Assembly (NCBI GenBank): GCA_026417995.1 | Contig: JAOACF010000003.1 | Coordinates: 1,737 to 65,736 of the forward strand | Direction of reading: 5' to 3' | Source: Negativicutes bacterium | GTDB taxonomy: Bacteria; Bacillota; Negativicutes; Sporomusales; JAOACF01 | Length of the DNA stretch: 64,000 nucleotides | Shown: positions 30,679 to 52,527 of the stretch, piece by piece | How positions within the stretch are numbered: the first letter of the stretch is position 1 | Layout: each line of letters opens with the position of its first letter | Made by a program: the position numbers and the translations under genes | Notes under the pieces: generated by a model | The model's database searches: none | What the model saw: only the letters and a program-made list of their open reading frames with translations | What the model was told of the DNA's origin: nothing

Positions 30679-32076
30679 ATGGCAGAGTTTAAGGCAGCAC
30701 TGCGAGAAATTCCGGCGATTGACAAACTGCTTCAGGCCGCTGCCGGCGATGATGGTTTCGCCGGATTGGAGCGCAAAGCGGTCACTGAGGCCTTGCGCGC
30801 GGCGGTGGACGAAGCACGCAAGGCAATTATGAGCGGCGGCGATAGGGATGTATCCATTAAGGGAATATTGGATGCGGCCAGGCGCAAGCTGGCAGTGATG
30901 CTGCGGCCAACGCTGCGGCGAGTGATCAATGCTACCGGCGTCGTGCTGCATACCAACCTCGGCCGCGCTCCTTTAAGCGCGCGCGCCCAGGCGTCGGTAG
31001 TCGAAGTCATGAACGGATACAGCACGCTGGAATATGATCTGGTAACAGGGGAGAGAGGCAGCCGTTACTCGCACATACGCGAGCTCATTTGCCGTTTGAC
31101 CGGCGCGGAAGACGCGCTTGCGGTAAACAACAATGCGGCGGCGGTTGTCCTGGCGGTTTCGGCCGTCGGCGCGGGGCGCGAAGTAATTGTCAGCCGGGGC
31201 GAACTGGTAGAAGTAGGCGGCAGCTTTCGCATTCCCGACGTAATAAGCCAAAGCGGCGCCCGCCTGGTGGAAGTGGGAACAACCAATAAAACACATATTG
31301 CCGACTACCGGGCAGCCATTACGCCGGACACGGCAGCGCTGCTGAAGGTGCATACCAGCAATTACCGGATCGTTGGTTTTACCGCCCAGCCGGACGCCGC
31401 CGAACTGGTTGCCCTAGGCGAGGAGTTCGGTCTGCCGGTGATTGAAGACCTGGGCAGCGGCACGTTGTTGCCAGTAGAGGCGGGAGACTGGCGCGAACCT
31501 TCGGTTGCGGAACGGGTGGCGGCTGGTTTCAGCATCGTAACCTTTAGCGGCGATAAGCTGTTCGGCGCGGGGCAGGCCGGGATTATCGCCGGTAAAAAGG
31601 TTTACATTGATAAAATGAAAAAACATCCGCTGCTTAGGGCCTTCCGTATTGATAAGCTTTCGCTCGCCTCGCTGGAAGGGACGCTTATAGACTATGCCTG
31701 GGGCAACCCAGTATGTGATATCCCGGTGCAGCGCATGCTAAGAGCTGACCCGGAAGTTCTTAAAACCAGTGCGGCAAGGCTTGCCGCCATACTAAAGGAA
31801 CAGGCGCCGGATTGGTCCGTTCGGGTTACGCCTACGGCCTCCCCTGCCGGCGGCGGCTCGCTGCCGGCCGTCAATCTGGCTGGCTATGGCGTCAGTGTGT
31901 CGCCGCGGACGGTGTCGGCCGCGGCCGCGGAGATAATGCTGCGCAAGCGGGATGTTCCGGTGATTGCCAGAATACAGGATAACCGGCTGTTGTTTGATGT
32001 CCGCTGCCTGCGGGAGGAAGACTTTGCGGAGATTGGCCTGGCCTGCGCAGAAATAGCGAAAGGGGAAAGCATGTGA
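30679..32076 (+). CDS. selA: L-seryl-tRNA(Sec) selenium transferase
   Basis: VINATGVVLHTNLGRAPLS, FSGDKLFGAGQAGII (PLP lysine). Confidence 0.93.
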   Translation: MAEFKAALREIPAIDKLLQAAAGDDGFAGLERKAVTEALRAAVDEARKAIMSGGDRDVSIKGILDAARRKLAVMLRPTLRRVINATGVVLHTNLGRAPLSARAQASVVEVMNGYSTLEYDLVTGERGSRYSHIRELICRLTGAEDALAVNNNAAAVVLAVSAVGAGREVIVSRGELVEVGGSFRIPDVISQSGARLVEVGTTNKTHIADYRAAITPDTAALLKVHTSNYRIVGFTAQPDAAELVALGEEFGLPVIEDLGSGTLLPVEAGDWREPSVAERVAAGFSIVTFSGDKLFGAGQAGIIAGKKVYIDKMKKHPLLRAFRIDKLSLASLEGTLIDYAWGNPVCDIPVQRMLRADPEVLKTSAARLAAILKEQAPDWSVRVTPTASPAGGGSLPAVNLAGYGVSVSPRTVSAAAAEIMLRKRDVPVIARIQDNRLLFDVRCLREEDFAEIGLACAEIAKGESM

Positions 32077-33950
32077 AGTATATTATTATCGGCACCGCCG
32101 GACATGTGGATCATGGAAAATCGGCCCTGATCAAGGCGCTGACCGGCACAGACACCGACAGGCTTAAAGAGGAAAAAGAACGGGGCATATCCATTGATCT
32201 TGGTTTTGCCTCGCTCAGTCTGTCAGAGGACATTGCCGCCGGTATTGTCGATGTGCCGGGACATGAACGGTTTCTGAAAAATATGCTCGCCGGCACCGGC
32301 GGCATTGATCTTGCCTTGTTGACAATCGCCGCCGATGAAGGTGTCATGCCGCAGACGCGTGAACATTTAGCCATGCTGCAGCTTTATGGCGTCAAGCACG
32401 GCGTGGTGGTTATCAACAAAATTGACAAGGTTGATCAGGAATGGCTGGCTCTTGTCAGGGAAGAAGCGGCGGATGTTCTGCGGGATACATTTTTGGCGAA
32501 CGCGCCGGTTTGTTATGTTTCGGCAATTACCGGCGCAGGCTTGCCAGAGCTGAGAAATGTTCTCGCCGCCACTGCCCGCCAAATTTCACCGCGCGACGCC
32601 AGGGCGCCTTTTCGCATGTGGCTTGACCGGGTATTTTCGGTTAAAGGCCACGGTGCGGTTGTGACCGGCTCGGTTCTCAGCGGCCAAGCCAAAGTCGGCG
32701 ATACGCTGACGCTCCTCCCGTCCGGCAAGCCGGTCAAAGTGCGCGGCCTGGAAACGCACGGCCGCAAAGTAGATGTGATTTACGCCGGGCAGCGTGCTGC
32801 TTTCAACTTGAGCGGCGTTGACAAGGAAGAAATGGGGCGCGGCATGGCCCTGACCGCAGCCGGACGCGGGCAGGTTGCCAGGGTCTGGGATGTTGCGGTC
32901 GAGTGGCGGCAAAAGATGGAGAACGTCCGGGGGCGCCTGCATTTGGGGACAGGGGAATTTATCGGTAGAATTTACAAACCGCAGCGCAGTCCGGCAGGGC
33001 AATACCGACTGGCGCTGGAGGAGCCTATAGGCGCAGGTGCGGGCGATAAGGGAATTTTGCGATTGTATTCGCCGCAGCACTTGCTGGGAGGAGTGGTGAT
33101 GCTGGGGGCGGTCCTGGGACAAGGGCGGGAATATCCAAATCGCCTGCCGCTTGCCGCCGCGCTGGACAAAGCTGACGGGCGTGCGGCGGCGGCCGCCATT
33201 CTATCCTGGCAAAAGCGGCCGGTGACGGCGGATGAAATCAGGCAGGAGGCAGGCTATTTGCCTGATGACATTCTGGAAAGCGGCATTGCCGGGCTTGTTG
33301 CCGACGGGCAAGTGATCAAACTGGAACGGTTTTATCTGACAAAAGTGCTGCTGACGACGCTGGGCAGCCATCTGTTTAGCATGCTTGACAGTTACCACCG
33401 TCTTAATCCCAGTCGGTTCGGCGCGCCGAAAGAGGAGCTGAGGCAAAAGCTGGGCATTGAGGACAAAGTGTTTGAAGTGCTGCTGCAGCATTTTATCCAG
33501 GATAACCAGATCACTGCCCAGGGAGCGGAGGTGGCGCTACCCGCTCATGCCGGCAAGCATCAGGACTGGCAGCGCGATATAACGGGCGAAGTGGAACGCG
33601 CGCTCGCGGGCAGCGGCCTGATTGATGTCAGTCCGGCGCTGCTGGCAGAAAAGCTGGGCTTGTCGCCGGCTAACGCCCAAAAAGTTTGGGGGGCGCTAGT
33701 CAAGGAAAAGGTAATCATTCGCCTGGGAGAAATTCATGTATACAGAAAAACAATTCAAAACATTGTGGAGCTTATACAACGTCATTTCCGGAGTCATCCA
33801 GGCATTACCGTGGCGGAACTGCGTGATATGCTTAACACCACCCGCAAATTTGCTTTGCCGGTGCTTGAGTATATGGATGTGAATAAATATACAGTAAGAG
33901 ACGGCGACATACGAAGGCCTGGGCCGAAAATAAGGGATTTGTCAGAATAA
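32073..33950 (+). CDS. selB: Selenocysteine-specific elongation factor
   Basis: IIGTAGHVDHGKSALIKALTG, DVPGHERF, and a long winged-helix C-terminus. GTGA overlap with selA. Confidence 0.93.
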   Translation: MKYIIIGTAGHVDHGKSALIKALTGTDTDRLKEEKERGISIDLGFASLSLSEDIAAGIVDVPGHERFLKNMLAGTGGIDLALLTIAADEGVMPQTREHLAMLQLYGVKHGVVVINKIDKVDQEWLALVREEAADVLRDTFLANAPVCYVSAITGAGLPELRNVLAATARQISPRDARAPFRMWLDRVFSVKGHGAVVTGSVLSGQAKVGDTLTLLPSGKPVKVRGLETHGRKVDVIYAGQRAAFNLSGVDKEEMGRGMALTAAGRGQVARVWDVAVEWRQKMENVRGRLHLGTGEFIGRIYKPQRSPAGQYRLALEEPIGAGAGDKGILRLYSPQHLLGGVVMLGAVLGQGREYPNRLPLAAALDKADGRAAAAAILSWQKRPVTADEIRQEAGYLPDDILESGIAGLVADGQVIKLERFYLTKVLLTTLGSHLFSMLDSYHRLNPSRFGAPKEELRQKLGIEDKVFEVLLQHFIQDNQITAQGAEVALPAHAGKHQDWQRDITGEVERALAGSGLIDVSPALLAEKLGLSPANAQKVWGALVKEKVIIRLGEIHVYRKTIQNIVELIQRHFRSHPGITVAELRDMLNTTRKFALPVLEYMDVNKYTVRDGDIRRPGPKIRDLSE

Positions 33951-33970
33951 ACTATCTTTCTGTATGCATA

Positions 33971-33999
33971 TTGACAGCATAAGTTTTCGTTTTTATAAT
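33971..33999 (+). promoter_or_regulatory. Consensus sigmaA promoter of the glutamate synthase operon
   Basis: TTGACA, 17 nt spacer, TATAAT. Confidence 0.7.
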
Positions 34000-34061
34000 T
34001 AGGATTATCAAGAACATTGTAATCTAGAAGTGTTTAACAGAAGAACATTTGTTTTAGGGGA

Positions 34062-34222
34062 GTGTGCCTAGGGTTCCGCATGACCAACGTCGTTCATGCC
34101 AGCGACACGCCGGTCATGGCTGCGACCGAGCGGCACTGGCGTTATGCGCTACACCGTGGGGATAAAAGACCCTGGCGGAAGGTCCCGGAGATATCCGGTA
34201 TTTTCCGCCAGAGGTCTTTTTA
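34062..34222 (+). promoter_or_regulatory. ykkC-family riboswitch with terminator expression platform (subtype 2a/ppGpp suggested by gene context)
   Basis: CTAGGGTTCCG (34068-34078). P1a CATGACC/GGTCATG. GCTGCGACCGAGCGG (34119-34133). ACACCGTGGGGATAAAAGACCCTGGCGGAAGGTCCCGGAGA (34151-34191). Terminator AGACCCTGGCGGAA / TTCCGCCAGAGGTCT plus T5 (34167-34221). Confidence 0.8.
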
Positions 34223-34254
34223 TTTTATTTTATTATGGTGGAGAGGTGAGAATT

Positions 34255-35361
34255 TTGTGCAGGATCGGCGCGCTTAAAAGCAAGCAGTATTTGCATCCGG
34301 CTCAGGCGCTGCGGTTGATGATCCCGCAGCAGGAAGGCCACGATAATTCGGGCTTTGCCATGGTGATTCAAGATCTCGGCGGCGTGTTTGGCAAGTATAA
34401 AGATAAGCCGCTCATGTCGCTGGCATGTACGCAAAAAGGGGCAAATCTGGTAGAAAACTATATGGAAACGCGCGGGTTTATCCAGATATTTGAATGGGTT
34501 CCGCCGGTTAATAAAGTCGCGGGTCTGGATATTAAAGCAATGCCCCACTATATTTACCGGGCTTATGATTATCCGGAGCACTATCGGAAAGCGTCCCCGG
34601 CGGCGAAGGAAGACCTTTTGCTTGATACCCGCCTGGCTGTCCGGGCGCTGCTGGAAAAAGATGAACAAGGCTATGTCTATTCCTTCTGGCCTGACGTCCT
34701 GACCTTAAAAGAAATCGGCGACCCGCGCGATATTGCGGTATACTTTCGCCTATGGGACGAGACCGGCGATATGATCGCCAAAAATATTGTTGTGCAGTGC
34801 CGTCAGAACACGAACTATGAAATTGTCCGCTATGCGGCGCATCCGTTCTTTATCCAGGGCTACACGCTGTGTGCCAACGGTGAAAACACGTTTTACACCA
34901 AGAACAAAGAGTATCAGCGTTCGCTGAACAAAGGCTATATTGGCTTTGAATCCGATTCGCAGAACTTTCTCTATTCCTTGCACTATGTGCTCAGGACTTT
35001 GAAGTGGCCGATCAAGTATTACAAGCACGTGATTACACCGCTGCCTTTTGCCGAAATTGAAAAACGCCCGGACCGTGACGTCCTGACGCTCATCCGCCAA
35101 ACATTGGGCCACCTGGAGATCAACGGGCCCAATACCATTATTGCCATGCTGCCGGACAGCAGCATGATGACCTGCTGCGATTCGAAAAAATTGCGCCCGG
35201 TAATCGTCGGCGGCGACGGCGAAACGATGGCAATCTCTTCGGAAGTGTGCGGCCTTAATACCATCTTGCCGCACCGCAACAAGGAACTGGATGTTTACCC
35301 GGGTGAGCGCGAAATTGTGGTAGTAACGCCGGAACTGGAGGTGCAGCGATGGAAACAGTAA
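34255..35361 (+). CDS. Glutamate synthase, class II glutamine amidotransferase domain protein (archaeal-type split GltB, part 1)
   Basis: Start trimmed to TTG 34255 giving M-CRIGAL... (N-terminal nucleophile Cys). SD GGAGAGGTGA. The upstream part of the track ORF is the riboswitch. Confidence 0.8.
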   Translation: MCRIGALKSKQYLHPAQALRLMIPQQEGHDNSGFAMVIQDLGGVFGKYKDKPLMSLACTQKGANLVENYMETRGFIQIFEWVPPVNKVAGLDIKAMPHYIYRAYDYPEHYRKASPAAKEDLLLDTRLAVRALLEKDEQGYVYSFWPDVLTLKEIGDPRDIAVYFRLWDETGDMIAKNIVVQCRQNTNYEIVRYAAHPFFIQGYTLCANGENTFYTKNKEYQRSLNKGYIGFESDSQNFLYSLHYVLRTLKWPIKYYKHVITPLPFAEIEKRPDRDVLTLIRQTLGHLEINGPNTIIAMLPDSSMMTCCDSKKLRPVIVGGDGETMAISSEVCGLNTILPHRNKELDVYPGEREIVVVTPELEVQRWKQ

Positions 35362-36983
35362 GGACGCAAGACGTAAGTGTCAATGACTTGCCGTGGAAAA
35401 TTGACTGGCGTGATGAGCGCTGCACCATGTGCGGCAGTTGTGTGGCGGCCTGTACGTTCACAGCAATCGAGGCGGCCATGGAGCGGAGGTCTGTAACCAT
35501 ATCGACCGGCCATCAGCCCGAACCGGCGCAGCGGCACAGCGCCGTACCGGTAATTCGGCAGCGTTCCGGCACGGCGCATATTTGCGTAGGCTGCGGCATG
35601 TGCGAGAAAGTATGCCCCAACAAGGCCATCAGGCCGGTGCGCAATGAAGATAACCGCGTTAACCTGCTGACCCGGGCAGGCGGTGTCGCCATCAAGCGCG
35701 GCGGCCGCAACAATATCATGGCCGACCGGGTTTTAGACAAGGTTATTGTTGGCCGCATTTCGCAAATGACTGACCCTTCGCTGGATTCGGAACGCCATAC
35801 TTTTGATGTTTTGGCCCCGTTTGGCCGGGTATTGCTGCCGGGCGAGCTTCCCTTCACCGTAAATGGCGACAATCTGGAACTGACGGCGAAAACGCCGCCG
35901 GTGCATTGGATTTACCCCCTGATTTTCAGCGATATGTCGGTCGGCGCTTTATCCACGCGGGCTTGGGAAGCAATCGCCCTGGCCACGGCGTATTTGAATG
36001 AGAAATGCAATATACCGGTGCGTATGTCTTCGGGGGAAGGCGGCATGCCGGTCAAACTGCTTAAGTCGGAATACCTGAAATATATGATCATCCAAATTGC
36101 TTCCGGCCATTTCGGCTGGAACCGGATCATTAAAGCCATGCCGCACATGGTAACAGATCCTGCCGGCATACTCATCAAGATCGGCCAGGGCGCAAAACCA
36201 GGCGACGGCGGTCTTTTGCCGGCGGCGAAAGTCGCCGAGCACATACAAGCAATTCGCGGCGTGCCTAAAGCCGACCTATTGTCGCCGCCCAACCATCAAG
36301 GGCTGTATTCGATTGAGGAATCAGTGCAAAAAATGCATATGTCGCTCAACGCCGCTTTCAAATTCCGGGTGCCTGTCGCCATCAAGTGTGCGGCGTCGGC
36401 AACGTCGGTTTCGGTTTACAATAATCTTCTGCGGGACCCGTACTATATCTGCGGCGGCTTCTTTATCGACGGCCTGCAGGGAGGCACAGGCGCAGCGAAC
36501 GAAGTTTCGCTTGACCACACCGGGCATCCGGTGGTTTCTAAAGTGCGCGAATGCTATTTAGCCGCCGTCAAGCAAGGCCGTCAGGGGCAAATCCCGCTAT
36601 GGGCGGGTGGCGGTATCGGCATGACAGGCAATGCCGCCGCCGATGCCTTCAAATTGATCTGCCTGGGCGCCAACGGCGTGTTTATCGGCAAAATCCTGAT
36701 CCAACTGCTCGGGTGCGTGGGCAATGAGCGGGGCCGCTGCAATGCTTGCAACACCGGTTTGTGCCCCACCGGAATTTGCACTCAGGATCCCCGCCTGGTT
36801 AAACGCCTGGATATTGACAAAGGAGCGCAGGCAATCGTCGACTATATGGTAGCTTTCGACCAGGAACTGAAGAAACTCATGGCGCCCATCGGCAACAGCT
36901 CTCTGCCTGTCGGCCGCTCGGACGCGCTGGTTACCACCGATAAGGCAGTTGCCGACAAACTGGCAATTCAGTACGCATGTTAG
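35349..36983 (+). CDS. Glutamate synthase FMN-binding domain protein with N-terminal 2x[4Fe-4S] ferredoxin motifs
   Basis: CTMCGSCVAACT, CVGCGMCEKVCP, GQGAKPGDGGLLP, SPPNHQGLYSIE. Confidence 0.85.
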   Translation: METVRTQDVSVNDLPWKIDWRDERCTMCGSCVAACTFTAIEAAMERRSVTISTGHQPEPAQRHSAVPVIRQRSGTAHICVGCGMCEKVCPNKAIRPVRNEDNRVNLLTRAGGVAIKRGGRNNIMADRVLDKVIVGRISQMTDPSLDSERHTFDVLAPFGRVLLPGELPFTVNGDNLELTAKTPPVHWIYPLIFSDMSVGALSTRAWEAIALATAYLNEKCNIPVRMSSGEGGMPVKLLKSEYLKYMIIQIASGHFGWNRIIKAMPHMVTDPAGILIKIGQGAKPGDGGLLPAAKVAEHIQAIRGVPKADLLSPPNHQGLYSIEESVQKMHMSLNAAFKFRVPVAIKCAASATSVSVYNNLLRDPYYICGGFFIDGLQGGTGAANEVSLDHTGHPVVSKVRECYLAAVKQGRQGQIPLWAGGGIGMTGNAAADAFKLICLGANGVFIGKILIQLLGCVGNERGRCNACNTGLCPTGICTQDPRLVKRLDIDKGAQAIVDYMVAFDQELKKLMAPIGNSSLPVGRSDALVTTDKAVADKLAIQYAC

Positions 36984-36995
36984 GAGGGCGAGCGA

Positions 36996-39323
36996 ATGTT
37001 TAAGATCAGCACTTTAAACGGCAACGAGCGCATGTCGACGCAGGAGCTGCTGCAGGCGATCAATGCGGCGCTCGCCGCCGGCGAAACCGAATATGAGATA
37101 GAAGCCTCCGGACAGCACGATATCGGCGGGCCGCTGTGGCATCCGGAAGGCAAGCCGCTCAAATTTATCATCACAAACCCCGGCCAACGGGTCGGCTCTA
37201 TGTGCCTGGAAGGCACGGAAATTATTGTGGAAGGCCCGGCGCCGGCGGACGTAGGTTGGCTTAACGCCGGCGGCAAGATTATCGTGCGCGGCGACGGCGG
37301 CGACACGGCGGGACATTGCGCCGCTTCCGGCAAGATCTATATCGGCGGCCGCGCCGGCACGCGCTCAGGGTCGCTGATGAAGCACGACCCGCTGTATGAA
37401 CCGCCTGAACTGTGGATATTGAAAAATACCGGCAGCTTTTCCTTTGAGTTTATGGGCGGCGGCATTGCCGTTGTTTGCGGCTATGACAGCGAACAGTTCG
37501 ATTCCGTTTTGGGCGACCGTTCCTGTGTGGGTATGGTAGGCGGCAAGCTGTATGTGCGCGGCCCTATTCAGGGCATATCCGCCAAAGACGTCAAAATCAT
37601 GCCGCTTTGCGACAGCGATATAGCGTGGCTTGCGGCCAATATGCCGCAGTTTCTCAACGAAATCGGGCGTGCGGACCTCGGAGAAACGCTTACTAGGTGG
37701 GAAGAGTGGCGCAAAGTGCTGCCGCTTACCTATGATGAACGCCCGAAAAAACTAAGCGCCGATATCCGGTCTTTTCGCCTGCGCGAATGGGTGCAGGGCG
37801 GCATATTCAGCGATGTCTGCCAGGATGATTATGCCGTCATGGGGCTGGTGGCCAAAGGGCTGTACCGGCAGCGTATTCCGGTATGGGAGAATGCCCGGTA
37901 CAATGCGCCCTGCGAATTTAACTGCACGGCATCCATTCCGACACAGCAGCGTTTTAACCTGCTGCGGGAAGGAAAAATTGAAGAAGCATACCGCCTGGTG
38001 CTTGACTATACGCCGTTTCCCGGCTCGGTTTGCGGCGCGGTTTGTCCCAATCCCTGCATGGAAAGCTGCACGCGCGGCGAAATTGACTATCCGGCGCAGA
38101 TCAATGCCCTAGGCGCTTATTCGGCCGGCATACCGGCTCCCACGCCGGCGGCAAATACCGGCAAAAAAGTAGCGGTGATCGGCGGAGGCCCGGCCGGATT
38201 AACAGCCGCCTGGCAGCTGGCGCGCAAGGGTCATCAAGTCACTGTTTATGAAGCGGATGATGTTGTGGGCGGTAAGTTGGAACAAGCAATTCCCCGCTCG
38301 CGGCTGCCGCGCGAAGTGCTGCTTGCCGAAATAAACCGCATACGCGACATCGGGGTTGCTTTTCAGACCGGCGTTAAAGTGGATCGGGAAATGTTCGCCC
38401 AAATAAAAGCAGGTTATGATGCGGTCGTAGTAGCGACCGGCGCGCATGTGCCCCGCGTGTTTCCCTGGCCCGGCCATGAACGCATTGTGAAAGGGTTGGA
38501 CTTCCTCAAGGCAATCAACCGCGGTGAGCGGCCCCAAGTCGGCCGGCGCGTTGTCGTCATCGGCTGCGGCAACTCGGGTATGGACGCCGCCGTAGGGGCC
38601 TATCAGCTGGGGGCTGAGCAGGTTGTCTTAATCGACGTGCAGCAGCCCGCCGCCTTCCCCAAGGAAATTGCCCATGTCGAAGCGATGGGCGGTGTGCTGA
38701 TGTGGCCGGTAATTGCCAAAGAAATTACCGAACAGGGCGTTGTAACGGCAACAGGGGATTTGATACCCGCCGATACCGTTATCATTACCGTCGGCGAAAC
38801 ACCTGACTTAAGCTTTTTGCCGGAAGGAGCGCCCCTCGAAAAGGGCCTCCTAAAGCCGGATCATGCGTATCGGATTGCTGACGGGGTATTTACCGCCGGC
38901 GATACCATCCGTCCCGGCCGCCTGGTCGACGCTATCGGAACCGGACGCGAAGCCGCGCTGGCTGTTGACGCCTATCTGAAAGGCGAAACGTTTGCGGCGG
39001 AGGCGAAGAACAAGATAGCGCTGACAAGAATATCCAAGGCTTATTTCAAGCGCTTAAGCGAGACGGAAATCCCGGCGGCGGGCGAAGATTATCAGCGCTG
39101 CATAAGTTGCGGTTCCTGCCGGGATTGTCATATGTGCATGAAATCTTGTCCGGAAAACGCTATAACCAGAATCGTCAAGCCTGACGGAACGTTCGCCTAT
39201 GTCTCGGATGACAATCGCTGTATTGGCTGCGGCATCTGCGCGGGAGTGTGCCCGTGCGGCGTCTGGGCCATGCACGCCAACGCCAAGCCTATTCCGATGT
39301 ATACTATGGCCGGCATTTCCTAG
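36996..39323 (+). CDS. Fusion of the GltB C-terminal GXGXG domain, a GltD-like NAD(P)H:FAD oxidoreductase and a C-terminal ferredoxin
   Basis: GGDTAGHCAASGKIYIGGRAG repeats, VAVIGGGPAGLTAAWQLARKG Rossmann motif, CISCGSCRDCHMC...CIGCGICAGVCPC. Confidence 0.85.
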   Translation: MFKISTLNGNERMSTQELLQAINAALAAGETEYEIEASGQHDIGGPLWHPEGKPLKFIITNPGQRVGSMCLEGTEIIVEGPAPADVGWLNAGGKIIVRGDGGDTAGHCAASGKIYIGGRAGTRSGSLMKHDPLYEPPELWILKNTGSFSFEFMGGGIAVVCGYDSEQFDSVLGDRSCVGMVGGKLYVRGPIQGISAKDVKIMPLCDSDIAWLAANMPQFLNEIGRADLGETLTRWEEWRKVLPLTYDERPKKLSADIRSFRLREWVQGGIFSDVCQDDYAVMGLVAKGLYRQRIPVWENARYNAPCEFNCTASIPTQQRFNLLREGKIEEAYRLVLDYTPFPGSVCGAVCPNPCMESCTRGEIDYPAQINALGAYSAGIPAPTPAANTGKKVAVIGGGPAGLTAAWQLARKGHQVTVYEADDVVGGKLEQAIPRSRLPREVLLAEINRIRDIGVAFQTGVKVDREMFAQIKAGYDAVVVATGAHVPRVFPWPGHERIVKGLDFLKAINRGERPQVGRRVVVIGCGNSGMDAAVGAYQLGAEQVVLIDVQQPAAFPKEIAHVEAMGGVLMWPVIAKEITEQGVVTATGDLIPADTVIITVGETPDLSFLPEGAPLEKGLLKPDHAYRIADGVFTAGDTIRPGRLVDAIGTGREAALAVDAYLKGETFAAEAKNKIALTRISKAYFKRLSETEIPAAGEDYQRCISCGSCRDCHMCMKSCPENAITRIVKPDGTFAYVSDDNRCIGCGICAGVCPCGVWAMHANAKPIPMYTMAGIS

Positions 39324-39331
39324 CTCCACCG

Positions 39332-39371
39332 CTCCCTGGCGCATGTCTTTATGCGTTGGGGAGTTTTTTTG
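39332..39371 (+). terminator. Intrinsic terminator after the glutamate synthase operon
   Basis: CTCCCTGGCGCAT-GTCTTT-ATGCGTTGGGGAG (with G-U pairs) followed by T7. Confidence 0.8.
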
Positions 39372-39588: not shown

Positions 39589-39617
39589 TTGACGCAGAGT
39601 GAACGCGTACTTATAAT
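39589..39617 (+). promoter_or_regulatory. sigmaA promoter of livJ paralog 1
   Basis: TTGACG, 17 nt spacer, TATAAT. Confidence 0.65.
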
Positions 39618-39722
39618 TATATCCATAGACAAACATACTTGCGTGAGGGACGTAACCGGTCGGCGCAGGCGGTTTGTCGAAAGGCTTTGTTTTTAAACGA
39701 AAAGGGGATAGGGGGAAACAAC

Positions 39723-40886
39723 GTGTCTAAAAAATGGAGAACATTCTTAGGGCTGGCAGTAGCGCTGACCATGCTTACCGGGCTGGTTGCCGGCTGCGGC
39801 GGACAAACGGAATCGAAGGATATCAAAGTAGGCGGCAATCTTGAGTTAACAGGCGGCATTGCGACTTTCGGCCAGTCAACGGCAAACGGCATCAAGCTGG
39901 CTTTTAAAGAAATCAACGCAGCCGGCGGCGTTCTCGGCAAACAGCTCACGTTTATTGCGGCTGACAATAAGTCGGAGCCTTCTGAATCCACTAATGCGAT
40001 TACCAAGCTGATTACCCAGGACAAAGTGGTGGCCGTGCTTGGCGCCGTAGCCAGCTCGAATACCCTGGCGGCCTCGCAGGTGGCGCATGACAACAAGATC
40101 CCGTTCATCAGCACGAGTTCGACCAATCCGAAGGTTACTGTCGATGGCGGCAAGGTTAAAGAATATGCGTACCGCATCTGTTTCATTGATCCCTTCCAGG
40201 GCACGGTAATGGCCAATTTTGCTACTAACAGCCTTAAAGCGAAAACTGCAGCCGTCTATATTGATAATAGCTCCGATTATTCTAAGGGTTTGGCTCAGTT
40301 TTTCGAAGAAGCATTTGTTAAAAACGGCGGCAAGATAGTAGCTAAAGAAGCGTTTCTCCAGAAAGACCAGGATTTTAAAGCTACGCTGACCAAGATTAAG
40401 GCGACCAATCCGGATGTTATCTTTATCCCCGGTTATTATGAAGAAGTTGGCAAAATCGTCAAGCAAGCCCGTGAATTAGGCATTACGGTTCCGCTGCTGG
40501 GCGGCGATGGCTGGGATTCGCCGAAACTTGTTGAGATTGCCGGCGCGGCAGCGCTGAACAACGGCTATTTCAGCAATCACTATTCGCCGGAAGACAAAGA
40601 TCCCCGCGTAACCAAATTTGTCGAAGCATATAAGAAAGAATACGGCCAGGTGCCTGATGCTCTGGCAGCGCTCGGCTATGATGCGGCACTGATGCTTGTT
40701 GACGCGATCAAGCGCGCAAACAGCGCTGAACCCGGCAAGATCAAGGACGCTCTGGCGCAGACCAAAAACCTGCAAGTCGTAACCGGCGTGGTTTCGCTTG
40801 ATGCCAATCATAACCCTGTGAAAAGCGCAGTTGTAATCGAAATGAAAGATGGCAAGCAAACCTTCAAAGAAAAAGTTAATCCCTAA
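39723..40886 (+). CDS. Branched-chain amino acid ABC transporter substrate-binding lipoprotein (LivJ/K family), paralog 1
   Basis: GTG 39723 gives MSKKWRTFLGLAVALTMLTGLVAGCGG (lipobox). Type I PBP. Confidence 0.88.
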   Translation: MSKKWRTFLGLAVALTMLTGLVAGCGGQTESKDIKVGGNLELTGGIATFGQSTANGIKLAFKEINAAGGVLGKQLTFIAADNKSEPSESTNAITKLITQDKVVAVLGAVASSNTLAASQVAHDNKIPFISTSSTNPKVTVDGGKVKEYAYRICFIDPFQGTVMANFATNSLKAKTAAVYIDNSSDYSKGLAQFFEEAFVKNGGKIVAKEAFLQKDQDFKATLTKIKATNPDVIFIPGYYEEVGKIVKQARELGITVPLLGGDGWDSPKLVEIAGAAALNNGYFSNHYSPEDKDPRVTKFVEAYKKEYGQVPDALAALGYDAALMLVDAIKRANSAEPGKIKDALAQTKNLQVVTGVVSLDANHNPVKSAVVIEMKDGKQTFKEKVNP

Positions 40887-41023: not shown

Positions 41024-41052
41024 TTGACATGTTGATACATTGTCACTATAAT
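41024..41052 (+). promoter_or_regulatory. sigmaA promoter of livJ paralog 2 / livHMGF
   Basis: TTGACA, 17 nt spacer, TATAAT. Confidence 0.7.
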
Positions 41053-41249
41053 ATACACTGTAGGAAGCACAAATATTTTCCGTGTGCGCACAGGGTGGCG
41101 CTGTTGTTACGGCCTACGTGTATGGGACTGGTACAGGCACGTGTCTGATCAGTCTTTTTATCTTTAAGGCATGATAACTGCCTGGTGCGTAGTTGTGGCA
41201 TACGGCAAGTACAAGGTGCAATATACTCTGTTGGTGGAGGAGAGACAAC

Positions 41250-42413
41250 ATGTTGAGAAAGATTCTGTCACAAGCACTGGTTATTATGCTGATAGCGGCC
41301 CTGGCCGCCGGCTGCGGCGGTGGCCAGCCAAAAGCCGATGTGATCAAACTGGGTGCTAACCTGGAGATGACAGGCGGCAACGCGACGTTTGGCGCATCTG
41401 CGGCCAACGGCGCCAAACTGGCGATTAAAGAAGTCAACGCCAAAGGCGGCGTACTGGGCAAACAACTCACGCTTACGGTAGCGGACAACAAGAGCGAAGC
41501 GGCGGAAGCGGCTAACGCCATGCAAAAGCTTATTACCCAGGATAAAGTGGTGGCCGTAATCGCGCCGATCGCATCTTCCAGCGTGATTGCCGGCGCTCAG
41601 GTCAACCAGGACAACAAAGTGCTGGCCATCAGCCCGACGGCATCCAACCCGAAGGTTACGGTTGACCCGGCAACAGGCAAGGTAAGGGACTTCCTGTTCC
41701 GCGCCGCGTTCATTGATCCTTTCCAGGGTTCGGTAATGGCTAATTTCGCGGCCAAAACGCTGAAAGCCAAGACAGCGGCCTTATATATCGACAACTCCAG
41801 CGACTATGCCAAGGGCTTGGGGCAATTCTTCAAGGAAACCTTTGTAAAAAGTGGCGGCAAGATTGTAGCGGAAGAAGCTTATCTGCAAAAAGACACCGAT
41901 TTTAAAGCAACTCTGACTAAGATCAAAGCACAAAATCCGGATGTGCTGTTTGTGCCTGGCTATTATCAGGAAGTGGGCATGATCGTTAAACAAGCCCGCG
42001 AACTGGGGCTCAATATGCCGATTATGGGCGGCGACGGCTGGGATTCGGCCAAACTGCCGGAAATCGCCGGCACTCAGGCGCTCAACAACACATTCTTCAG
42101 CAACCACTACTCGCCTGATGATAACAGCCCAGCTGTAAAAGCCTTTGTCGAGGCGTATAAAAAAGAGTACAACCAAATTCCCGACGCTTTTGCCGCGCTG
42201 GCTTACGACGCCACCATGATGGTGATTGAAGCCATCAAACGCGCCAACAGCGCCGATCCAGTTAAAATCAAGGATGAACTGGCAAAGACCAAAGACTTCC
42301 AGGCAGTTTCCGGCCTGATTACCCTGAATGCAACTCATGACCCGGTTAAGAGCGCCGTTATTATTGAGATGAAGGACGGCAAGCAGACATTCCGCGAAAA
42401 GGTAAATCCGTAG
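41250..42413 (+). CDS. Branched-chain amino acid ABC transporter substrate-binding lipoprotein, paralog 2
   Basis: MLRKILSQALVIMLIAALAAGCGGG (lipobox). Collinear with paralog 1 along its whole length. Confidence 0.88.
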   Translation: MLRKILSQALVIMLIAALAAGCGGGQPKADVIKLGANLEMTGGNATFGASAANGAKLAIKEVNAKGGVLGKQLTLTVADNKSEAAEAANAMQKLITQDKVVAVIAPIASSSVIAGAQVNQDNKVLAISPTASNPKVTVDPATGKVRDFLFRAAFIDPFQGSVMANFAAKTLKAKTAALYIDNSSDYAKGLGQFFKETFVKSGGKIVAEEAYLQKDTDFKATLTKIKAQNPDVLFVPGYYQEVGMIVKQARELGLNMPIMGGDGWDSAKLPEIAGTQALNNTFFSNHYSPDDNSPAVKAFVEAYKKEYNQIPDAFAALAYDATMMVIEAIKRANSADPVKIKDELAKTKDFQAVSGLITLNATHDPVKSAVIIEMKDGKQTFREKVNP

Positions 42414-52408: not shown

Positions 52409-52427
52409 AACGCTATAGTAAAAATCG

Positions 52428-52527
52428 CAATACAGGACTGGCGGATCAGTGGAGTTAACCACGTGGACTGTATTGTTGGAAAGCCGACCGCCTGGGCGCA
52501 TTTTGAATTTTGCCCAGGCGGTTTTTA
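52428..52527 (+). promoter_or_regulatory. ZTP riboswitch (pfl motif) with terminator
   Basis: P1 CAATACAG/CTGTATTG (8 bp). GACTGGCGG. P2 GTGG-AGTTAA-CCAC. P3 TTGG-AAAG-CCGA. Conserved CCGCCTGGGC (52488-52497), whose CCGCC pairs with GGCGG (pseudoknot). Terminator GACCGCCTGGGC/GCCCAGGCGGT plus T5. Confidence 0.85.

Follow-up and report, generated by a model that had tools for sequence, protein, structure and literature searches.

What does the leader of a glutamate synthase operon in a Negativicutes bacterium respond to? The operon lies on contig JAOACF010000003.1 (assembly GCA_026417995.1), within the stretch of 64,000 nucleotides (nt) that was analyzed as a whole and is called the window here. 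An earlier note on this DNA, made from the letters alone, had placed the leader in the ykkC riboswitch family and had suggested a ligand of the guanosine tetraphosphate (ppGpp) type rather than the guanidine type. The leader (34006-34254) very probably holds a (p)ppGpp-sensing ykkC riboswitch of subtype 2a, which switches transcription ON. Riboswitches for ppGpp in front of glutamate synthase genes have been known since 2018, and the element in the window is a further member of this published class in a published context. Of the 105 published ppGpp riboswitches, 78 stand before branched-chain amino acid (BCAA) genes, 15 before glutamate synthase genes (gltS, gltB, gltD, glxB) and 12 before natA-type ATP-binding cassette (ABC) genes; the glutamate-synthase-associated glxB aptamer of Pelosinus fermentans binds ppGpp (PMC6003355).

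The leader and its aptamer

Transcription would start at about 34006, downstream of a promoter that had been described as consensus and does match at every position; this promoter is common to all related glutamate synthase (glx) loci examined. From the presumed start site, the leader runs for ~250 nt to the TTG start codon at 34255, so that the ~215 nt proposed earlier hold as far as the terminator but fall short of the start codon. The sequence blocks quoted in the earlier note are all found at their stated places: CTAGGGTTCCG at 34068-34078, GCGACCGAGCGG at 34122-34133, ACACCGTGGGGATAAAAGACCCTGG at 34151-34175, CCCGGAGA at 34184-34191 and TTCCGCCAGAGGTCT at 34203-34217, the last followed by a T-rich run. 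One equation between blocks had to be given up. CCCGGAGA had been taken as the counterpart of CCCGGGAGA in guanidine-I elements, but the true counterpart is CCCUGGCGGAAGG (34170-34182), and CCCGGAGA consists of the P0 3' strand and the apical hairpin of the terminator.

Family placement was examined by comparison. A pattern scan with one genome per species gave at least 118 ykkC subtype-2 loci, a sample that is incomplete because the pattern required CCGAGYG and missed CCAAG variants such as loci L119-L123. Aptamers were extracted, and downstream open reading frames (ORFs) were called and clustered, with cluster representatives annotated using Pfam. Two covariance models were built, R1 from 38 non-redundant aptamers before ilv/leu genes only, and R2 from 12 purine-context aptamers of the phosphoribosyl pyrophosphate (PRPP) type; the window and its glx-context relatives were left out of both training sets. 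For the 38 ilv/leu aptamers, RNAalifold recovered P0, P1, P1a, P1b and P3, with compensatory changes in 14 of the 25 predicted pairs, including pairs in P0 (which varies between GC, AU and GU), P1 and P1b. When applied to the window, R1 gave a single match in 64 kb, over the full model and with an E-value of 1.1e-22, and membership in the ykkC family is thereby confirmed. The promoter and the parts of the aptamer are as follows.

33971-33999 (+), sigma-70-type promoter, TTGACA-17-TATAAT, 12 of 12 consensus positions
34056-34187 (+), ykkC subtype 2a (ppGpp-type) aptamer; 80.7 bits with R1, 47.1 with R2, 39.1 with Rfam Guanidine-I
34058-34062 (+), P0 5' strand GGGA (34058-34061), which pairs with UCCC at 34183-34186, then unpaired G34062
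34064-34136 (+), P1 stem-loop (P1, the CUAGGGUUCCG block, P1a and P1b), all pairs canonical
34064-68/34132-36 (+), P1, canonical pairs
34071-72/34126-27 (+), P1a, canonical pairs
34076-34124 (+), P1b, its tip with 26 extra nt at 34086-34111
34126-34132 (+), CCGAGCG, with G34130 and C34131 as the P1/P1a bulge (from the RF00442 alignment)
34138-34150 (+), P2 hairpin (GGCG/CGCU), formed here as in all 113 aptamers tested
34151-34154 (+), P2-ACAC motif, invariant in 38 of 38 subtype 2a aptamers
34154-34178 (+), P3 hairpin with loop GAUAAAAGA and a 3' bulge of U34173 and G34174 (from the R1 alignment), canonical pairs
34179-34186 (+), P3-P0 single strand AAGG (34179-34182; NAGG type, a motif defined in PMC9881157), then the P0 3' strand UCCC

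The ykkC fold (P1, P1a, P1b, P2 and P3 with the CUAGGGUUCCG and GGG-NAUAAAAG-CCC blocks) is present and aligns at full length to both RF00442 and R1. Ligand binding by subtype 2a aptamers needs a P0 ending in A, an unpaired G, the P1/P1a G-C bulge, ACAC and a P3-P0 linker of 4-5 nt of the form (A)NARG, and NAGG linkers are associated with a preference for ppGpp over guanosine pentaphosphate (pppGpp) (PMC9881157). The window has P0, the A-G pair of positions (A34061 and G34062, which are A-5 and G-6 in literature numbering; PMC9881157), the G-C bulge, ACAC and a 4-nt NAGG linker. An AAGG linker is found in five of the seven parsed glx-context aptamers among the matches listed.

Ligand class and competing readings

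A pyrimidine in place of A46 sets subtype 2 apart from guanidine-I. Within subtype 2, the main distinction is the G96 of the P3 S-turn, which 2b (PRPP) conserves and 2a (ppGpp) has lost; both 2a and 2b have an extra P0 helix formed from the two ends (PMC6031431). The marker at the A46-equivalent position, called C49 or C-44 in literature numbering, lies directly 3' of a bulged G (PMC6031431; PMC9881157). In the window it is C34131, where guanidine-I has A in the alignment to RF00442. At the second site, the P3 bulge was parsed as the stretch between CCC and (N)CGG, and a GG doublet was counted in three gene contexts, among the matches listed:

Purine context (purL, purE, purC, pbuG), 12 aptamers: GG bulge in 12 of 12
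BCAA biosynthesis (ilv/leu) context, 52 aptamers: GG bulge in 0 of 52
Glutamate synthase (glx, parsed) context, 7 aptamers: GG bulge in 0 of 7

The non-purine bulges are CA, AA, GA, TA, GT, T, A, G, AG and similar, and that of the window is UG. Two further sites divide the contexts in the same sample of listed matches. The P0 5' strand reads GAAAG in all 12 purine-context aptamers and GGAAG or GGGAG elsewhere (GGGAG in the window), and the P3 loop is mostly GAUAAAAG directly on CCC in the purine group and NAUAAAAGA in the other groups, with the window of the non-purine type. The covariance models sort the loci likewise. R1 exceeds R2 by 33.6 bits in the window and by 19-36 bits in all seven glx-context genome loci among the matches listed, R2 exceeds R1 by 16-39 bits in the purine-context loci (its own training set), and guanidine-I loci score low on both. 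Altogether, the marker C34131, the model scores, the lack of a GG bulge and the published 2a features bear out the earlier suggestion of a ppGpp rather than a guanidine type.

In four other loci of the sample (L043, L070, L081 and L082, from Chloroflexi and one metagenome-assembled genome labelled Proteobacteria), ykkC subtype 2 aptamers score higher with the PRPP-type than with the ppGpp-type model. Their operons encode a histidine-phosphatase-family protein, a SerA-like dehydrogenase and a class V aminotransferase, a context for which no description was found in the cited ykkC literature.

Several findings weigh against a ppGpp riboswitch. G34174 occupies the position equivalent to G96, which in PRPP aptamers is a conserved G that pairs with the ligand-reading C. 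U34063 and U34137 are mismatched, so the P1-ACA motif reads ACU. The P1 stem-loop (U34063-U34137) is 75 nt, the longest of 113 aptamers among the matches listed (median 49), with its P1b extension in the variable tip. When the aptamer is folded in isolation, its minimum free energy (MFE) structure departs from the canonical one (z = -1.46 versus shuffles, not significant), and comparative evidence was relied on for this reason. In the published survey, roughly one candidate aptamer in six showed poor binding or none (PMC9881157). The first ORF downstream is presumed to be a glutaminase subunit on the strength of database names, an N-terminal Met-Cys and a weak motif. Finally, Rfam 15 at gathering thresholds gave no ykkC match in the whole 64-kb window, and the Guanidine-I score of 39.1 bits is below the gathering score of 63 bits, leaving no supra-threshold Rfam match to the element.

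The Rfam result can be set beside a control. A search of 401 nt (33900-34300) aligned RF00442 Guanidine-I at full length to 34057-34179 (E 1.1e-5), with a 26-nt insertion at the P1b tip and CCGAGCG in place of the family's CCGAGAG, and no other ykkC-type Rfam family appeared there at E-values up to 10. When related loci were scanned with Rfam 15, no ppGpp or PRPP family was reported for them. Five subtype 2a aptamers (L012, L099, L050, L092 and L022) went unreported, and a tandem guanine-PRPP element (L005, 5043-5161) was labelled Purine and "Guanidine-I", the latter with 68.5 bits and thus over the cut-off of 63; a true guanidine-I element (L033) reached 84.8 bits. Standard annotation with Rfam 15 therefore misses or mislabels ykkC subtype 2 elements.

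Two other RNA elements were also observed. The sole gathering-threshold match in the window is a ZMP/ZTP riboswitch at 52424-52504 (60.2 bits, cut-off 39), directly 5' of pyruvate formate-lyase and activating-enzyme genes, which is the classical pfl-motif context. In Desulfotruncus arcticus (L022), a T-box leader at 261-510 stands directly 5' of the subtype 2a aptamer (575-658) before ilvE, an order that reproduces the published tandem T-box/ppGpp arrangement.

The alternative that survives best, itself improbable, is an aptamer derived from subtype 2a whose specificity or threshold has shifted, or one that binds nothing and leaves a plain attenuating terminator. G34174 would then pair with C34152 in cis and compete with ppGpp, so that more ppGpp or another phosphorylated ligand would be needed. 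In an ungapped alignment the UG bulge does place a G at the G96 equivalent, and this G is common to the closest relative of the leader, a metagenomic contig (L120), and hence maintained; the P1b extension is found there too. The unusual length of the P1 stem-loop among the matches listed, the missing P1-ACA and the report that some predicted 2a aptamers do not bind ligand (PMC9881157) point the same way. Against this, the G95 of the S-turn GG pair is absent, and bulges ending in G occur in 9 of the 52 ilv/leu-context aptamers (G in seven, AG and CTG) and, as a single G, in three other glx-context aptamers among the matches listed, and are therefore compatible with 2a contexts. Moreover, the window lacks none of the features that proved indispensable for binding in PMC9881157, and aptamer, terminator and operon have been kept together across 12 further loci. 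Altered ligand specificity on account of G34174 and the long P1b thus seems unlikely from the sequence. It has been stated that ppGpp aptamers have A, C or U at the G96 position "but not G" (PMC6031431); this rule appears too strict or dependent on the alignment, and the counts suggest that it is better restated as "not GG". In that form, a GG bulge marks purine contexts (12/12) and any other bulge marks amino-acid contexts (GG in 0/59), among the matches listed.

A PRPP riboswitch of subtype 2b is very unlikely. It shares with the window the subtype-2 architecture including P0, the C49-type marker and ACAC (PMC5912903; PMC6031431), G34174 aligns with its G96, and R2 still gives 47.1 bits. Yet the G95-G96 doublet of the S-turn, found in 12 of 12 purine-context aptamers listed, is absent, the P3 loop has GAUAAAAGA before CCC rather than the purine-context GAUAAAAG, the P0 5' strand is GGGAG and not the GAAAG of all 12 listed purine-context aptamers, and R1 outscores R2; no purine genes lie nearby, and the window has no Purine riboswitch match such as the guanine aptamer that often accompanies PRPP elements in tandem. 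Guanidine-I, or a variant of subtype 2c (nucleoside diphosphate) or 2d (ligand unknown), is scarcely credible: Guanidine-I is the sole Rfam match to the aptamer and shares the P1/P1a/P1b/P2/P3 fold and the CUAGGGUUCCG and GGGAUAAAAG..CCC blocks, but its score lies below the cut-off, the A of its pocket is replaced by C34131, the window adds a P0 helix and an extended P3 base, the genes downstream encode glutamate synthase with no carboxylase or efflux genes nearby, and the NUDIX/HAD hydrolases tied to 2c and the EamA/TauE transporters tied to 2d (PMC7266159) are not encoded downstream.

Terminator and switching

If the leader is a ppGpp riboswitch, how would binding reach the transcript? The aptamer is followed by, and overlaps with, an intrinsic terminator:

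34165-34219 (+), intrinsic terminator hairpin (MFE fold)
34216-34235 (+), U-rich tract of the terminator, UCUUUUUAUUUUAUUUUAUU (read from sequence)

Its outer stem is made by the P3 3' strand and the linker (34165-34183), and its inner hairpin, CCGGA/UCCGG (34185-34198), shares positions with the P0 3' strand. In the MFE fold of 34050-34230, positions 34165-34219 are paired (-84.5 kcal/mol, z = -5.8, 0 of 200 shuffles as stable). The statement in the earlier note that the aptamer 3' strand also serves as the terminator 5' arm is upheld by this fold and by the related loci: each of the eight glx-context loci examined has a predicted bipartite terminator that overlaps P3 and the linker. By nearest-neighbor energies, the canonical aptamer state reaches -40.7 kcal/mol and the terminator state -67.3 kcal/mol; taken by itself, the terminator hairpin (34160-34230) has -40.5 kcal/mol, and P3 and P0 together supply about -13.9 kcal/mol. 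Because the terminator is far more stable than P3 and P0, the default would be OFF, and ligand would have to capture P3 and P0 during transcription. Such co-transcriptional capture agrees with the published kinetics of the D. hafniense switch, and the ilvE ppGpp element of that organism is an ON switch in which P3 is the antiterminator (PMC6003355).

On the basis of published work on other members of the class, the events may then be pictured as follows. Transcription would begin at the consensus promoter, and the emerging aptamer could fold as a four-way junction of P0, P1, P2 and P3. With ppGpp, the guanine of the ligand would pair with C34152 of ACAC, whose equivalent is expected to form a Watson-Crick pair with it (PMC6003355; PMC6031431; PMC9881157), and the phosphates would be held by A34061/G34062, G34130/C34131, C34154 and the AAGG linker. 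Binding would lock P3 and P0 and make their 3' strands unavailable for other pairing. Without ppGpp, 34165-34183 would pair with 34200-34219, giving the terminator with its U-tract, and polymerase would stop before the TTG at 34255. The stringent response would in this way lead to more glutamate synthesis.

The element resembles the published ppGpp riboswitch 2a (Sherlock, Sudarsan & Breaker 2018, PMC6003355) in scaffold, subtype markers, gene class, ON logic with a P3 antiterminator and bacterial group, the relatives of the window being Negativicutes. It differs by its long P1b (26 extra nt), its UG bulge and ACU in place of P1-ACA; ppGpp preference has also been tied to a short P1 (PMC9881157), and that of the window is long.

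Aptamer and operon recur together in 12 further loci, nine of them with all three ORFs (L073, L092, L097, L101 and the metagenomic contigs L119-L123), and in L099, L066 and L078 the sequence stops short of the third ORF. Anaerospora hongkongensis and Lucifera butyrica, both Negativicutes, are the closest relatives; the first ORF of A. hongkongensis (L092) is 86% identical, the closest among the genome loci listed. The leader of contig L120 has the same UG bulge, promoter and terminator as the window. At 2250-2480, this contig carries ~225 extra nt with several GC-rich hairpins between the riboswitch terminator and the ribosome-binding site, and no Rfam family match was obtained for them.

The operon, an upstream motif and selB

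The regulated unit is a glutamate synthase encoded in three ORFs, as had been proposed, with glutamate synthase domains on the second and third:

34255-35361 (+), ORF1, TTG start, N-terminus MCRIG; presumed glutaminase subunit (GltB1, class II amidotransferase)
35349-36983 (+), ORF2, 4Fe-4S (Fer4) domains and glutamate synthase flavin mononucleotide (FMN) domain (PF01645, E 3e-64)
36996-39323 (+), ORF3, GXGXG domain fused to a GltD-like NAD(P)H oxidoreductase and ferredoxin domains (PF01493, PF07992, PF14691)
39331-39371 (+), intrinsic terminator that ends the operon, 15-bp stem then T7
39639-40886, livK-like periplasmic binding-protein gene, with its own promoter (39589-39617) and a short leader
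41193-42413, livK-like periplasmic binding-protein gene, with its own promoter (41024-41052) and a short leader

ORF3 also matches NCBIfam glutamate synthase small-subunit models. ORF1 has no Pfam or NCBIfam match even at an E-value of 10, and sequence and profile searches of the PDB were without significant match. It is highly conserved (2562 homologs at E<=1e-5), its homologs are named "glutamate synthase domain-containing protein 1", "GltB1" or "class II glutamine amidotransferase" in databases, and its weak motif is PurF-like (E 0.6). An AlphaFold model from a 28-sequence alignment was poor, with a predicted local distance difference test (pLDDT) score of 48.5.

The BCAA-transport context of the earlier note survives as adjacency. 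The two livK-like genes do adjoin the operon, but a strong terminator separates them from it and each has its own promoter (11/12 and 12/12 consensus positions), and they are therefore outside the regulated unit; with R1, no second ykkC element was found before them in the 64-kb window. A livK-like gene 3' of the operon is also present in L092, L097 and L073.

Directly upstream lie selA and selB. The selB gene occupies 32073-33950 (stop codon at 33948-50), and the riboswitch promoter follows 20 nt later without an intervening terminator; the riboswitch terminator is therefore the first one after selAB. The order selB-aptamer-glx is also found in L099, L101, L078, L097 and the near-identical L121-L123, and aptamer and operon occur without selB upstream in L066, L073, L119 and L120.

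A near-palindromic motif, TTRTCAGAAWAAA (TTTAT-CAGA-ATAAA), stands at 33939-33951, its center at about -62 from the presumed start site. It overlaps the selB stop codon in the window, yet is retained where selB is absent. In relatives, it was located at 7542-7554 in L066, 1850-1862 in L073, 7067-7079 in L078, 203-215 in L092, 1700-1712 in L097, 6379-6391 in L099 and 3243-3255 in L101. In seven of the eight glx-context sequences examined it lies 31-32 nt 5' of the -35 element, and in L078 farther upstream. Among the matches listed, it occurs in 7 of 7 glx loci versus 1 of 111 other loci. The motif is probably a protein operator, and in a comparison made here its core resembles a CodY box at 10 of 15 positions. 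One may imagine that in the clade of the window and L120 this operator at about -62 is joined to a self-competing ppGpp sensor of raised threshold or altered preference, giving two-input control, but the chances of this are slim.

The synteny also bears on published aptamers. Aptamers specific for ppGpp have been described in Selenomonadales as "selB aptamers", with the speculation that ppGpp controls SelB synthesis (PMC9881157). Two of them are C81 and C90. In the window and four other distinct relatives (as well as L121-L123), selA-selB stand immediately before the aptamer, and the linker of the window is of the NAGG type; elements of this kind may well be these aptamers. The aptamer of the window is situated 3' of the stop codon of selB, is served by a promoter of its own and leads into the glutamate synthase operon. 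This anatomy argues that the published "selB aptamers", which are probably the same element, would control the glutamate synthase operon downstream of selB rather than selB. If this is true, riboswitch control of SelB synthesis by ppGpp would fall away.

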